A DNA stretch of 57,070 nt from a virus. Under the pieces are notes generated by a model that saw only the letters and a list, made by a program, of their open reading frames with translations, was not told where the DNA came from and ran no database searches. Position numbers and translations under genes: made by a program. This document shows positions 5,449 to 9,055 of the stretch, piece after piece (within the stretch, counting starts at the first letter, position 1; the number at the start of each line of letters is the position of its first letter). The stretch is from positions 1 through 57,070 of IMG/VR virus record IMGVR_UViG_3300045988_053137. The stretch is one strand, 5' to 3'.

Positions 5449-5507
5449 ATGTTATTAATATATATAATATCAGTTAGCTGGATAAGCTCCAGCAGAAAGG
5501 GGAATAT

Positions 5508-6170
5508 ATGGAGAAAGTACAGGAAACACCAGACACGCCCGAAGTATTTCAAAATGACATAGAACTTTATTTGTCACAATTTTGTGAAGAGCACAACATC
5601 GAAGATATGGCCAAAGAACCGCAAAGCAGATGGAACGCCGCTCTAATGTATATAAATAAATATGTTTTTAGTGATAAAAGTATATTAAAGTTAAATAAGA
5701 ATATTAATAAAAATAATACTAACTGTATAATGGATAGTAATTTTTATATGTATGATTTAGATAAATTAGAGTATATATTATATATATATTATTATATGTG
5801 TTCTATGTATGATAAAGAATGTAGTATATTAGGCTTTAGTTTATTAACTGGAATACATAAAGATACTTTTATGGATTGGGGAGCGAATGAAAGAAAGCTA
5901 AGTACAAAGGGCTTCGAATTGGTTCAAAAACTGCGAGATTTTAGAGAAGAAAGCTTGTCAAATAAGCTCGCAACTGGCAATAAAAACCCAGTTGGAATTC
6001 TTGCAATACTCAACAGACATTTCGCTTGGAACTTGCCCGGTGTTAGTAGAGAAAACACTAATAAAACAGCTCTTACAGCCGCAGAAATACGCCAGCAATT
6101 GAGCCAAAATAATAAACAATTAGCAGATAAACAGCAGATAAACGCTGTAAACAATTCTGACACAATTTAA
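5508..6170 (+). CDS. terS: Terminase small subunit
   Basis: MCSMYDKECSILGFSLLTGIHKDTFMDWG ... NKNPVGILAILNRHFAWN matches the HTH plus G.IF.LKN.FGW pattern of Firmicute TerS proteins. Confidence 0.6.
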   Translation: MEKVQETPDTPEVFQNDIELYLSQFCEEHNIEDMAKEPQSRWNAALMYINKYVFSDKSILKLNKNINKNNTNCIMDSNFYMYDLDKLEYILYIYYYMCSMYDKECSILGFSLLTGIHKDTFMDWGANERKLSTKGFELVQKLRDFREESLSNKLATGNKNPVGILAILNRHFAWNLPGVSRENTNKTALTAAEIRQQLSQNNKQLADKQQINAVNNSDTI

Positions 6171-6688
6171 ACAGCTTAGAAGCCGCTTAAATACTAGGTT
6201 TGTGAGTGATAAGTATTTAGATAACGCTGATAAATTAAGGTTTATCGGCGTTATGGTATGGATATGGTGTTAATTGTGTTAATTGTTTGATAATATGGCA
6301 TAAAATAGACACAATTACATAGACAAGGGCGGTGGGGGTTTATTTGCCCCTCAGGACCCGCCCAACTAAGTTGTTCAATTATCCAAAATAACAAAAAGCC
6401 CTTATATATTAATATATATTTATATTATTATCACCACATAATACACATATTATATAATTATATATAAATAGCACCTAACTATTAATCATATAATTAATAC
6501 TAATAAATCACTTATATATTTAATTAAAAATAATCCAATTAACATCTATACATTTAAGCTAATTAGGTGTATAATAAACACATATTAATTAATCACAAGA
6601 TATTCAATAAACACATCAGAGAATCAGCTAGTCGGCTGAATAAATTCCAAAAAAATTTAAAAAATAAAAAAAGAGTTAGGAGTTATAA

Positions 6689-7105
6689 ATGCAGGGCAAT
6701 GAATACCAAAAATTGGCTATGCGTACTAACGATAAAAAGGCATATCTTAGATTATATACTGAATTAACTGGTAAGCTTCCACTTAGTCCTCTAACAGAAA
6801 ACAATGCTAAGTGCAGCAACATAAATGACATAGCAGGACTTCTTAATGGCGTCTTAGGTTTAACTGGTGAAGCTGGCGAAGTATCAGACCTTGTTAAAAA
6901 GGGCATATTCCACGAAAAGGGAATAGACCTAGAATATCTTAAGAAAGAGTGCGGCGATGTAATGTGGTACGTTGCTATGATTTGCGAAGCCTGTGGTTTT
7001 AATCTTGATGATGTAATGCAGACAAACATAGATAAGCTTATAGCACGTTATCCGGATGGCTTTGATTCTTACAGAGCTAATCATAGGCAGGCAGGTGATG
7101 TCTAA
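6689..7105 (+). CDS. mazG: MazG-like nucleoside triphosphate pyrophosphohydrolase
   Basis: YQKLAMRT...GLTGEAGEVSDLVKK...ECGDVMWYVAMICEACGFNLDDVMQTNIDKL, the classic MazG EEXXE/D helices. Confidence 0.85.
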   Translation: MQGNEYQKLAMRTNDKKAYLRLYTELTGKLPLSPLTENNAKCSNINDIAGLLNGVLGLTGEAGEVSDLVKKGIFHEKGIDLEYLKKECGDVMWYVAMICEACGFNLDDVMQTNIDKLIARYPDGFDSYRANHRQAGDV

Positions 7106-7281
7106 TGCTTAAGCCGGAGGAAGATTGCTGTAATTGCTTGTATAAATTTAAAATGTGGTTTGAAACGCCTTGCAAAAATTGCAATGGTAATCCAGACACA
7201 CATCCTAACGGCACAGATAACTTTGTAGAACAGATTGATAGCACAAATGATATTGCAGCACTCTTTGAAGATAAAGAGTAG
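7105..7281 (+). CDS. Hypothetical 58-aa Cys-rich protein
   Basis: TAATG stop/start overlap with mazG; CCNC...CKNC pattern; below the track cutoff. Confidence 0.4.
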   Translation: MLKPEEDCCNCLYKFKMWFETPCKNCNGNPDTHPNGTDNFVEQIDSTNDIAALFEDKE

Positions 7282-7287
7282 CTTAAT

Positions 7288-7359
7288 TGCCCCTTAGCCA
7301 AGCGGTCAAGGCATAAGATTTTGATTCTTACATCATCAGTTCGATTCTGATAGGGGTAG
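7288..7359 (+). tRNA. tRNA-Gln(UUG): tRNA-Gln (anticodon UUG)
   Basis: Hand-folded cloverleaf: acceptor TGCCCCT/AGGGGTA (U1-A72), anticodon loop TTTTGAT, T arm ATCAG-TTCGATT-CTGAT, discriminator G; no encoded CCA. Confidence 0.85.
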
Positions 7360-7775
7360 TTCGCAAGTACTTAATCGTTACTTGCACCTTTGAACTTACT
7401 GGTTTGGTGGAATTACCATGACATTAAGTTCTCCTTTCACCTCATAGCAAGAGCTGTTAAGGACCGTCAGAAAGTCCGTGAGGTTTTACGCATATCCCAC
7501 ACAAATATGCGTAGTAATTATTTCAAATATTTCATAATCAGCAGTTATCCTTAAGGGATAGACAGCGAGCGAAGCCACTTTCTTTGAACAACCAAACTGC
7601 ACGGTGGAATACATCCAGCTTTGCCACGACCTGTTATAGGTGTCATAGCCTATACTGCTGTTAAGGCTAGCACTTTATATTCCCTCAAAACAATATTTTT
7701 AAGCGTATAAATGACCTCTAAAGAATTTATAAATGTGAATTGTTTAATCTCTCTGTGCTAGTCTTTTTATTTTAA
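7360..7775 (+). ncRNA. Hairpin-dense non-coding tract between two tRNAs (candidate large structured RNA)
   Basis: No ORF. Many 6-9-bp stems, for example GCAAGTA/TACTTGC, GAACTTA/TAAGTTC, TACGCATAT/ATATGCGTA and TAGCCT/AGGCTA. Confidence 0.3.
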
Positions 7776-7858
7776 GCCGATATGGGATAAAGGTATTCCA
7801 GTAGCTTGCTAAGCTATCCAACAGAAATGTTGTTCGTGTTCAAGTCACGATGTCGGCG
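7776..7858 (+). tRNA. tRNA-Ser(GCU): tRNA-Ser (anticodon GCU) with a long variable arm
   Basis: Acceptor GCCGATA/TGTCGGC, anticodon loop TTGCTAA, variable arm CCAACAGAAATGTTG, T arm TCGTG-TTCAAGT-CACGA. Confidence 0.85.
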
Positions 7859-7933
7859 TTTTGAAAGCACTTCTTAGGTCTGCGTGCGTAATGCTGTTTG
7901 CGGACTTATCCTAGGTTAAGAGGTGTGAGTAAG

Positions 7934-7977
7934 TTGCTATAAGTGGTGCCGTAAGGTTCGATTCCTTGCATAGCAAT
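7934..7977 (+). ncRNA. tRNA-like acceptor/T-arm minihelix C
   Basis: TTGCTAT-AAGTGGTGCC-GTAAGG-TTCGATT-CCTTGC-ATAGCAA-T; no D stem or anticodon arm. Confidence 0.45.
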
Positions 7978-8098
7978 TACAACAAACTAGGTTAGCTACC
8001 GAAAAGCACTTCCGCTGTGTCTGTTTGTTGTTTTTATCAATCAAGCGGAGCATGTATCACAGGCATACATAAATAATATCAAGCGGAGGTATTCGATT

Positions 8099-9055
8099 AT
8101 GGCAACAATTAGAGTGCATAAAACAAAAAATTACACAGTTATGAGTAATACTCATTTAAGGGATAAGAACTTAAGTCTGAAAGCAAAAGGACTATTGTCT
8201 GTAATGCTTTCATTGCCCGATAATTGGGATTATTCAATAGCTGGGTTAGTTGCAATAAGTAAAGAGAATGAAACAGCTGTTAAATCGGCTTTAAATGAGT
8301 TAAGGGATAATAATTATGTTGTGGTTACTAAAGAAAACCCAACAAAAAGCAATGGTGGAAGAATAAAGTACACCTATGAGGTTTACGAAGAACCATATAA
8401 ACAGAAAATAGAAAAACAAGATACAGAAAATCTAGGGGTTGAATGTCAACAGGTAGAAAACCACGGACAATTAAATACTAATGAATTAAGTACCGATGAA
8501 TTAAATATTAATATACAAAATACTAATGAATTAAATACTAAAAGTAATTCTCTTAACAGAGAACAATGTAATTCTTTTTTACCCAAAAATAAAAAAGTGA
8601 AAGAGTTTAAGCCGATAAGCGAATACTCTCAAAGTGATTGGGAAGTTGCCGAAGAAAGAATGATAAGTAGAGCTGGTAAGATAGCGTATGATTGGACTAA
8701 CGATGAAACACTCAAAGAAAATGTAGAAGCATTCTTTAAATACTTTCTAGATAAACACGGAGAATGCACTGGAGAATATCACTACCCATTAACAGATAAG
8801 GTTTTATCAAGAGTAGTAGATAATTTAACAAAAGAAACCGACATAGAGCGTGATGGATATACAGACACCTATTATGCGGCTATAAGTGATATGGACGATA
8901 ATACAGACTACAAGATGCTAGTTGATGAATATTTCAACACAAAGTTTTCAGCACAATGTGATTACAGCTTAGTTCACTTTTCTTCTGAAAAGGTTTTGAT
9001 TAACATTATGAACCACACTTGTAAGAGCAGTTGGTGCGAAAGTAAGGAATTGTAG
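8099..9055 (+). CDS. Winged-helix DNA-binding, replication-initiator-like protein
   Basis: N-terminus YTVMSNTHLRDKNLSLKAKGLLSVMLSLPDNWDYSIAGL...LNELRDNNYVV, a RepA_N/DnaD-like pattern; internal iteron-like repeats. Confidence 0.6.
   Translation: MATIRVHKTKNYTVMSNTHLRDKNLSLKAKGLLSVMLSLPDNWDYSIAGLVAISKENETAVKSALNELRDNNYVVVTKENPTKSNGGRIKYTYEVYEEPYKQKIEKQDTENLGVECQQVENHGQLNTNELSTDELNINIQNTNELNTKSNSLNREQCNSFLPKNKKVKEFKPISEYSQSDWEVAEERMISRAGKIAYDWTNDETLKENVEAFFKYFLDKHGECTGEYHYPLTDKVLSRVVDNLTKETDIERDGYTDTYYAAISDMDDNTDYKMLVDEYFNTKFSAQCDYSLVHFSSEKVLINIMNHTCKSSWCESKEL

Follow-up and report, generated by a model that had tools for sequence, protein, structure and literature searches.

Conserved RNA modules between tRNA genes and an int-alpA motif with a co-varying loop and boxes in a viral genome

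Here we describe a tract of 740 nucleotides (nt) interleaved with transfer RNA (tRNA) genes, at positions 7360-8098 of the virus record IMGVR_UViG_3300045988_053137. This IMG/VR record of 57,070 bp, analysed at its full length and called the window below, is a complete virus with direct terminal repeats. Its G+C content is about 36%, and nearly all the long open reading frames (ORFs) of the genome lie on the + strand, which also holds every gene flanking the tract and both of its tRNAs. The large terminase is 46-48% identical to unannotated human-faeces phage contigs, and the nearest isolate by TerL (40% identity) is Clostridium phage Maintenon, which infects [Clostridium] innocuum and measures 57 kb; given these relatives, the source is an uncultured gut phage, probably with a Bacillota host.

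The tract sits between terS and terL, immediately 5′ of a rep-like gene, and all the window features named in this text lie on the + strand. The mazG gene (6689-7105) is followed by a 58-codon ORF (7105-7281) and by tRNA-Gln(UUG) at 7288-7359, which was called by ARAGORN and scored 59.4 bits with the Rfam tRNA model. At the very next base begin 416 unannotated nt without an Rfam family (7360-7775), here named the trailer RNA, which run up to tRNA-Ser(GCU) at 7776-7858 (ARAGORN; 50.1 bits with the same model). Neither tRNA has an encoded CCA, and both abut the trailer RNA. Another 121 unannotated nt (7859-7979), comprising a spacer hairpin and a tRNA-like minihelix, precede the int-alpA motif (RF02996) at 7980-8046, which Rfam detects above its gathering score and which an earlier note on this DNA had overlooked. 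The rep-like gene itself (8099-9055, ATG at 8099) has an HTH_36 match, and its sole GenBank phage DNA match is annotated as a replication protein. We read the tract, with a probability of roughly 0.72, as a composite of separate and conserved + strand RNA modules that are not ROOL or GOLLD RNAs, completed by a loop/box pairing of int-alpA. New here are the survey of lineages, the cloverleaf reading of one module (domain B), the conservation figures of an anti-Shine-Dalgarno-like linker, and the covariation between the int-alpA loop and its boxes.

The earlier note had described the tract as devoid of credible ORFs and as structured, and both descriptions stand. No conserved ORF exists between tRNA-Gln and the ATG at 8099. 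The explanation that the tract encodes one or more small proteins could lean on the longest ORF found there, a 54-codon TTG frame at 7390-7554 that reaches 70 codons in one of the classes of relatives; yet this frame has neither an ATG nor a Shine-Dalgarno (SD) sequence, it spans 6-70 codons among relatives, its start is missing from 69 of 99 distinct spacers, and the short-class spacers have no homologous frame. As the substitutions are, moreover, compensating pairs and not codon-position changes, we regard a coding role as extremely improbable. The stretch 7360-7775 encodes a structured RNA of the + strand: its folding z-score is -3.0, equalled by none of 100 shuffles, compared with a weaker -2.1 for the - strand, and module by module the z-scores range from -1.4 to -4.9.

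Related viral contigs supplied 160 loci, which were fetched by protein-anchored searches out of 208 Rep and 357 MazG relatives. Among them the region is a recombination mosaic, with BLAST breakpoints at about 7487, 7672, 7775 and 7940, and its modules are lost, present or swapped independently. The distance from tRNA-Gln to the next tRNA is never below 211 nt in the relatives; the spacers form three length classes of common architecture, in which one or two 5′ hairpins are followed by a pyrimidine linker, a three-way junction, the variable hairpin H4, an optional domain B, a closing stem and the tRNA. The last 5′ hairpin of the relatives stops exactly at the linker, and in the window the order is H1, H2, linker, three-way junction, H4, domain B and the closing domain P5. 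Because the modules differ, an alignment of the whole trailer with MAFFT and RNAalifold was uninformative, and each module was therefore modelled separately.

The hairpins of H1, H2, H4 and P5 are each retained in 3-6 unrelated sequence versions. H1 (7363-7385; GCAAGTA/TACTTGC) reads CAAGTGT/ACACTTG or CGGGG/CCCCG in other classes and is missing from the short spacer class. H2 (7392-7431), whose 3′ strand continues into the linker, occurs in five unrelated versions that all end there (GAACTTA/TAAGTTC, GGACTTA/TAAGTCC, GACTACC/GGTAGTC, CTGTTC/GAACAG and TCTATCTT/AAGATGGA). H4 (7487-7513; TACGCATAT/ATATGCGTA, z = -4.9) has at least six stem versions, including ACGTGT/ACACGT, GCGTAT/ATACGC, GCTGCA/TGCAGC, ACCTC/GAGGT and GGCRTG/CAYAGYC, and a loop/box search like the one used for int-alpA gave no consistent partner for its loops. 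In P5 (7663-7775; z = -3.2), the stem GGCTAGCAC 7665-73 / GTGCTAGTC 7755-63 encloses a loop with UAUAUUCCCUC and is followed by UUUUUAUUUUAA; six unrelated versions of this stem are found, every one around an AUAYCCCC-type loop. Seven of the eight stems that had been listed by eye prove real and are retained in relatives via compensatory changes, namely GCAAGTA/TACTTGC (7363-85), GAACTTA/TAAGTTC (7392-7431), CCTCA/TGAGG around GGAC/GTCC (7440-83), TACGCATAT/ATATGCGTA (7487-7513), TATCC/GGATA (7547-60) and, in the spacer 3′ of tRNA-Ser, GTCTGC/GCGGAC. The eighth, TAGCCT/AGGCTA, has to be given up: nearly all relatives carry AAGACTAGCA, which creates a C.A mismatch in it and converts a G.U into an A-U pair in the alternative closing stem, that of P5.

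A universal core emerges from this comparison, made of a hairpin, then the invariant, single-stranded CUCCUUUC, then a three-way junction with GUUAAG. The linker (7429-7439) is single-stranded and anti-SD-like, and reads UUCUCCUUUCA in the window and UCCUCCUUUCA in most relatives; the junction (7440-7483) comprises the outer stem CCUCAU/GUGAGG, a small hairpin AGC/GCU, an invariant GUUAAG and the inner hairpin GGAC/GUCC. R2, a covariance model from 16 diverse core sequences whose E-values are rough owing to short model calibration, has a single match in the window (7422-7489, 74.5 bits) and exactly one in 99 of 100 related loci. Over 46 distinct sequences, 98.1% of cells in the core pairing are standard pairs and double-sided changes are seen in 10 of 16 pairs; the covariation score is 0.506, against 0.203 for shuffled alignments (0 of 500 shuffles reach the observed value) and 0.11 or less when partners are slid. 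Model-fitted alignments lean toward the model structure, and the slid-partner controls and raw MAFFT alignments give the same pairs. In these 46 sequences, CUCCUUUC is at least 90% conserved, being the most conserved unpaired stretch, and with the unpaired GUUAA it forms the best conserved columns of the core. Among the core pairs, one U.G never varies and G.U makes up about 12% of the paired cells, so that the folded strand is the + strand, as RNA or as single-stranded DNA. A pseudoknot partner for the linker was considered and dropped, as GUGAAA-type partners occur in some classes and are missing in others.

A pattern derived from the core, which matched each known locus once, brought 80 further loci from viral contigs, 60 of them true R2 matches. 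This independent set of 60 contigs is 96.5% paired, with a covariation score of 0.396 versus 0.154 after shuffling, and adds two lineages whose stems come in new versions. The core of the first is found about 55 nt 3′ of tRNA-Gln, heading arrays that count three to six tRNAs, and that of the second about 90 nt 5′ of tRNA-Met. In the related loci and in both further phage lineages, the core is always beside tRNA-Gln or tRNA-Met. When bacterial and archaeal genomes were scanned, 120 pattern stretches yielded 80 loci, none of which was scored by R2 at E<0.3, and these 80 are therefore chance matches. A blastn search of GenBank phages found the rep gene alone and no match to the trailer RNA. The core is a family absent from Rfam, found where tRNA arrays begin in three or more lineages of gut phages; its novelty is relative to Rfam, and the 8,495 unnamed IMG/VR candidates of PMC10690425 may include it.

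Domain B (7538-7662), an insertion of 125 nt seen in this lineage only, has the outline of a cloverleaf with a four-way junction and is matched by its model, R1, at 144 bits. It consists of a P1 of 7 bp (7539-45 / 7654-60), a P2 hairpin (7547-51 / 7556-60), a long arm of two helices (7561-65 / 7630-34 plus 7569-75 / 7618-24) and P6, a 5-bp hairpin abutting P1 (7636-40 / 7649-53); the minimum free energy fold reproduces these helices. R1 finds domain B in 57 of 100 loci, all of this lineage, with no match in the other lineages. Paired cells amount to 96.4% and double-sided changes affect 7 of 29 pairs, most of these changes coming from a single divergent lineage, for which reason the support for domain B is moderate. 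Its G.U pairs are compatible with the + strand only, and the inner helix survives a one-base insertion on each side (GCGAAGC/GCUUUGC to GCGAAAGC/GCUUUUGC). P1 and P6 stack to 12 bp, the same length as the acceptor/T-arm stack of a tRNA, and the P6 loop is UUCGUAC in the divergent class; descent of domain B from a tRNA gene would be possible on these grounds.

If such descent were generalised, the tract could be seen as decayed tRNA genes plus neutral spacer, its hairpins being leftovers or simple terminators conserved through close kinship only. The outline of domain B fits this explanation, with its 7-bp closing stem, its 5-bp arm and, in the L098 class, a UUCG-type loop of 7 nt, as do the minihelix, clearly a cut-down tRNA-like gene, and the mosaic nature of the region. 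Nevertheless, domain B gets no score from the tRNA model or from ARAGORN, the helices are retained across numerous double substitutions even where loops and spacers have diverged, lineages with unrelated flanks still have the core, and the unpaired CUCCUUUC and GUUAA are nearly invariant, so that decay appears quite improbable.

ROOL (RF03087) and GOLLD (RF01998) are structured non-coding RNAs that phages and prophages encode, frequently in the vicinity of tRNA islands, and whose function is unknown (PMC12286853, PMC5737381); many GOLLD RNAs exceed 800 nt, and GOLLD has been reported to pull down ribosomes (PMC12286853). The earlier note had proposed that the 740-nt tract as a whole is one large ornate RNA of this kind, which could be a divergent member beyond the Rfam models. 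The location in a phage and the interleaving with tRNAs, as often seen for ROOL and GOLLD (PMC12286853), go along with this proposal, as do the lack of ORFs and the good folding, and the part of it that speaks of a conserved structured non-coding RNA among tRNAs is upheld by covariation. The identity is not. With cmscan run against all 4,227 Rfam families, ROOL and GOLLD had no match in 7200-8200 at E<=10, HEARO, raiA and group I intron models had none in the window at the same threshold, and none of the five was found at E<=0.5 in nine diverse relatives that span all variant classes. Gathering-threshold matches in the window are the two tRNAs and int-alpA only, and in the nine relatives likewise tRNA and int-alpA alone; 7360-7775 gives nothing credible even at E<=10, a PsrR1 match at E = 0.47 being at chance level and explained by a stem plus a U-run.

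The architecture points the same way. ROOL and GOLLD measure 581 nt or more than 800 nt and have multistem junctions and pseudoknots, whereas the trailer RNA has 416 nt, a size far below that of GOLLD, folded in several local domains with two junctions and no long-range closing helix. Its modules are optional and interchangeable, replaced or lost independently until only about 211 nt are left in the short relatives, and the tract is interrupted by a tRNA, the minihelix and a separate Rfam motif. A single ornate RNA is, in our judgement, very unlikely. Structured RNAs beside phage tRNA genes, such as ROOL, GOLLD and the stable RNAs of T4, are a long-standing puzzle, to which the trailer RNA adds a third kind that is modular and much smaller. 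It occurs in hundreds of contigs of human-gut phages, from at least three lineages, and its core of about 55 nt is small enough for direct biochemistry.

The second pillar of the composite reading is the int-alpA motif, which scores 42.5 bits at 7980-8046 (gathering score, 35.8) and 35-53 bits in relatives (maximum 53.3), where it is found in about 128 of 160 loci. It displays the three-stem junction and U-run of RF02996, with P1 at 7980-87 / 8023-30, P2 at 7990-92 / 7998-8000, P3 at 8006-09 / 8017-20 with the loop UUCCGCU (8010-16), and the U-run UUUUUAU (8031-37) directly 3′ of P1; all three stems are paired in the consensus alignment. The usual context of int-alpA is upstream of integrase or alpA genes. 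Here, in human-gut phages, it lies directly 3′ of a tRNA or minihelix and 5′ of a rep-like HTH_36 gene or other early genes, the other loop classes preceding unrelated N-termini.

When 54 distinct int-alpA versions were aligned, the P1 and P3 stems were constant, P2 came in three versions (GGU/ACC, GCU/AGC and GGUGA/GACC) and the P3 loop in five classes. Each class has, in the roughly 70 nt downstream, two sites at fixed places that are exactly complementary to its loop over 6-8 nt (only 5 nt for one copy of box 2): box 1 lies 8-13 nt 3′ of P1, and box 2 merges with GGAGG or GCAGG, the SD of the next gene. In the window, box 1 (AAGCGGAG) is at 8043-8050 and box 2 (AAGCGGAGG) at 8081-8089, fused to the GGAGG (8085-89) of the rep-like gene, with the inter-box hairpin AUGUAU-CACAGGC-AUACAU at 8052-8070. 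Loops share mostly 3-4 nt with the downstream sequence of other classes, and the shuffle probability of two sites is 0.0014-0.045 per class, giving a five-class product of about 1e-10. The P3 loop co-varies with two downstream boxes, the second of them on the rep SD, and the five loop classes with duplicated boxes were found in this analysis. In the Rfam consensus, the loop CCuU faces AgGG in the tail, and loop-to-tail pairing is therefore probably family-wide; the three-stem junction, the closing stem followed by a U-run and the loop-to-tail pairing seen here are all consistent with the family.

The loop-to-box pairing is very probably functional, and int-alpA would then control the translation of rep through loop/box-2 pairing, by either repression or activation. 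The P1 stem with its U-run could terminate transcription and yield a small RNA of about 58 nt whose free loop acts on box 2, while in the read-through mRNA the cis loop would be occupied by box 1; this scheme we put forward with reserve, as one option of some weight. For IncB repA and IncI-alpha repZ, translational control of rep is exerted through a pseudoknot, between a loop and the ribosome-binding site, and through the Inc antisense RNA. There as here, an upstream hairpin loop pairs beside the SD of a replication-initiator gene and a loop of 6-8 nt sets specificity; in the Inc systems, however, the regulator is antisense and the pseudoknot activates translation, whereas here the small RNA would be a same-sense terminated transcript, accompanied by a duplicated decoy box. 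The five specificity classes resemble determinants of plasmid incompatibility, and the covariation turns an uncharacterised Rfam motif into a testable riboregulator.

As a separate observation, the loops of the inter-box hairpins (window 8052-8070, L137 and L146) carry the box sequence of another loop class. The window loop CACAGGC fits the box of class GACCTGTGAAC, the L137 loop AAGCGGA fits the window-class box, and the L146 loop contains TAAGGC plus GCGGAA. Such cross-matches could reflect cross-talk of co-infecting phages, or be a trace of how new classes originate.

The hairpins might also act as DNA, in an origin of replication or in a pac or attachment site beside the rep gene. The position between terS and terL, immediately upstream of the rep-like gene, invites this thought, as does the fact that tRNA genes are common integration sites. 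Several observations go against it: about 12% of core pairs are G.U and one U.G is invariant, which would make A.C mismatches on the other strand, and the same applies to domain B; the - strand folds less well; covariation retains RNA-type pairs; and the pairing of the int-alpA loop with an SD-adjacent box is meaningful in mRNA only. A DNA-level role thus carries very little weight with us.

Between tRNA-Ser and int-alpA lie two further elements. The spacer hairpin (7867-7926; z = -2.4) has the core GGTCTGC/GCGGACT, which in relatives becomes GTCTGC/GCAGAC, GTTTGC/GCGGAC or AGTTTGC/GCGAACT. The 43-nt minihelix (7934-7977) combines a 7-bp acceptor stem (TTGCTAT/ATAGCAA) and a T arm with GGTTCGATTCC, a canonical T loop included, and has neither a D arm nor an anticodon arm. 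In most relatives its slot holds a full tRNA of 72 nt that ends 3-4 nt before P1 of int-alpA, and the window element is therefore a cut-down version that keeps the part recognised by RNase P and RNase Z. Its acceptor stem recurs in a tRNA-like gene of about 115 nt that takes this slot in a few relatives (L013, L044 and L070). The minihelix may serve as an RNase P/RNase Z processing signal of the t-element kind, for which its position, replacing a full tRNA before int-alpA, speaks.

The tract probably constitutes the non-tRNA part of a rightward phage tRNA operon, in which independently folding modules are set between tRNA-shaped, putative processing sites. It is probable that transcription from a mazG promoter, followed by RNase Z and RNase P cuts at tRNA-Gln, tRNA-Ser and the minihelix, would free a trailer of about 416 nt, a spacer of about 75 nt and the int-alpA leader. 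The trailer RNA abuts CCA-less tRNAs on both sides, so that cleavage by RNase Z and RNase P is the simplest route to a discrete RNA. Phage T4 encodes the stable RNA species 1 and 2 within its tRNA cluster, and Escherichia coli has the 3′ETS-leuZ sponge RNA. Common to these and to our case are an RNA between or after tRNAs, an expected release by tRNA-processing enzymes and a possible action in trans, the likeness being one of location and expected release. A single good match to a sigma-70-like promoter (TATACA-17-TATAAT, a consensus match only) exists near the tract on the + strand, at 6547-6575 in the AT-rich spacer 5′ of mazG, and is likely the start of a mazG-tRNA operon.

The two most conserved unpaired elements of the trailer RNA are pyrimidine tracts, namely CUCCUUUC and the AUAYCCCC loop of all P5 versions. 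The 16S 3′ tail of Bacillota is CCUCCUUUCU, and CUCCUUUC agrees with it at 8 of 8 positions in the window and at 9 of 9 in most relatives. Directly 3′ of CUCCUUUC comes a helix with a pyrimidine-rich 5′ strand and an SD-like 3′ strand (GUGAGG, GAGAGG or GGAAAG). Through its exposed tracts, CUCCUUUC and a second one in an AUAUYCCC loop, the trailer RNA would pair with SD regions or mimic an SD/anti-SD helix. Because of these tracts, of the reported ribosome pull-down by GOLLD and of a comparable mimic in OLE RNA, we tentatively favour an action on translation, a proposal by analogy to which the invariant anti-SD-like strand gives a specific form.

In OLE RNA, P6 carries an SD/anti-SD mimic that binds ribosomal protein bS21 (PMC12054373). 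Both RNAs have a copy of the 16S 3′ tail (CCUCCU in OLE and, in the majority of the relatives studied here, CCUCCUUUC) that adjoins or forms part of a pyrimidine/purine helix; in our case this helix is CCUCAU/GUGAGG, CCUCUU/GAGAGG or CUUUCU/GGAAAG. The anti-SD copy of OLE is paired with an SD-like strand, whereas the exact copy in our RNA is unpaired and pairing involves a second, degenerate copy. The window has CUCCU and not CCUCC, and the likeness to OLE P6 is one of sequence resemblance only. The RNA at the head of the array might even be a decoy of the ribosomal mRNA-binding site, in which CUCCUUUC and the SD/anti-SD-like helix would capture bS21, 30S subunits or SD-bearing host mRNAs; excised in large amounts by tRNA-processing enzymes, it would tilt translation in favour of the phage, which itself has no gene for S21. 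We hold this extension to be rather doubtful; if true, the decoy would be the viral equivalent of the site by which OLE binds bS21, and the first functional handle on the structured RNAs that travel with phage tRNA arrays.

Nearly as likely as an action on translation is a role in cis, as a leader, antiterminator or processing element. In its strict form, the trailer RNA would be only a leader or spacer that controls the tRNA operon, through processive antitermination at the hairpins with U-runs or by guiding and ordering RNase processing, and would have no function as a free RNA; to this we give a similar, modest chance. The core heads tRNA arrays in all three lineages, U-runs come after three stems (H3 with UUUU, P5 with UUUUUAUUUU and int-alpA P1 with UUUUUAU), and the order of a hairpin, a conserved linear segment and a structured segment resembles boxB-boxA-boxC of rRNA operon leaders. 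The linker is also able, in every class, to pair alternatively with the 3′ strand of the outer stem, but its very invariance leaves this pairing without covariation support, and it matches boxA poorly. Furthermore, the consensus scan called no U-run hairpin a terminator, and in two lineages tRNA-Gln lies upstream of the element, hence outside its control.

The composite reading, and the action on translation proposed within it, must be set against several points, one of them being that the double changes of domain B stem mostly from a single lineage. What is said of the ends, amounts and processing of the RNAs is inferred from sequence throughout. The window linker is UUCUCCUUUCA and not CCUCC, and a few relatives have CUACUUUCA, CUUCUUUCA or UUCCUUUCG, so that a strict anti-SD reading is not universal. 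Small RNAs of the RsaE/RoxS type act by base pairing through a C-rich seed; conserved unpaired C-rich motifs are present here too, in the CUCCUUUC linker and the AUAYCCCC loop of P5. Co-varying targets, sought in phage sequences only, did not appear: complements of the linker in the phage are ordinary, generic SD sequences and no specific target, and for the 9-nt complement of the C-rich loop where terS begins (5500-5508), the relatives show no co-variation. Inside the tract, the consensus scan called neither a promoter nor a terminator.

Some relatives hold unusual tRNA genes in this region. In L013, L044, L070, L116, L154 and others, the segment that separates tRNA-Ser from the last tRNA contains tRNA-like genes of 115-230 nt. 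Their acceptor stem is normal, GGCGGAATGGGTAAACGC and GTGGTTCAAATCCAC mark the D and T arms, respectively, and a large structured insertion replaces the anticodon arm. ARAGORN did not call them, and they match no Rfam family. The last tRNA before int-alpA (e.g., in L128, L131 and L064), in the slot that corresponds to window 7905-7977, has the scaffold CGGATAGTAGTTCAG...CTATCCGA, with the anticodons TTA (ochre suppressor) in about 85 loci, TCA (opal suppressor) in about 20 and TTG (Gln) in 2, and versions of this scaffold with long insertions also exist. They look like suppressor tRNAs that arose from tRNA-Gln through single anticodon changes, and they might point to read-through or recoding of TAA or TGA in those phages. 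The window has no tRNA of this scaffold and reads well under code 11.

In phage Maintenon (L282, ON453900.1 29286-29560), tRNA-Gln is followed by about 250 nt with the pyrimidine tracts UUUCUCCUCC and AUAUACCUCCCUUUCUG, which gave no R2 match, also with filters off. This gap is annotated as two tiny hypothetical proteins, an example of how gene callers put small spurious ORFs into a comparable gap after tRNA-Gln, and 3′ of it, at about L282 1190-1262, there is an apparently unannotated tRNA-Met-like gene. Upstream of mazG in another relative, a type II hammerhead ribozyme (61 bits) was found on the - strand (L108 287-354). Finally, in L035, an insertion at about 1830-2700 splits the tRNA-Ser(GCU) gene 3′ of its anticodon arm; it carries an SD sequence and an ORF of roughly 230 codons, and is possibly an invader of the homing-endonuclease type.

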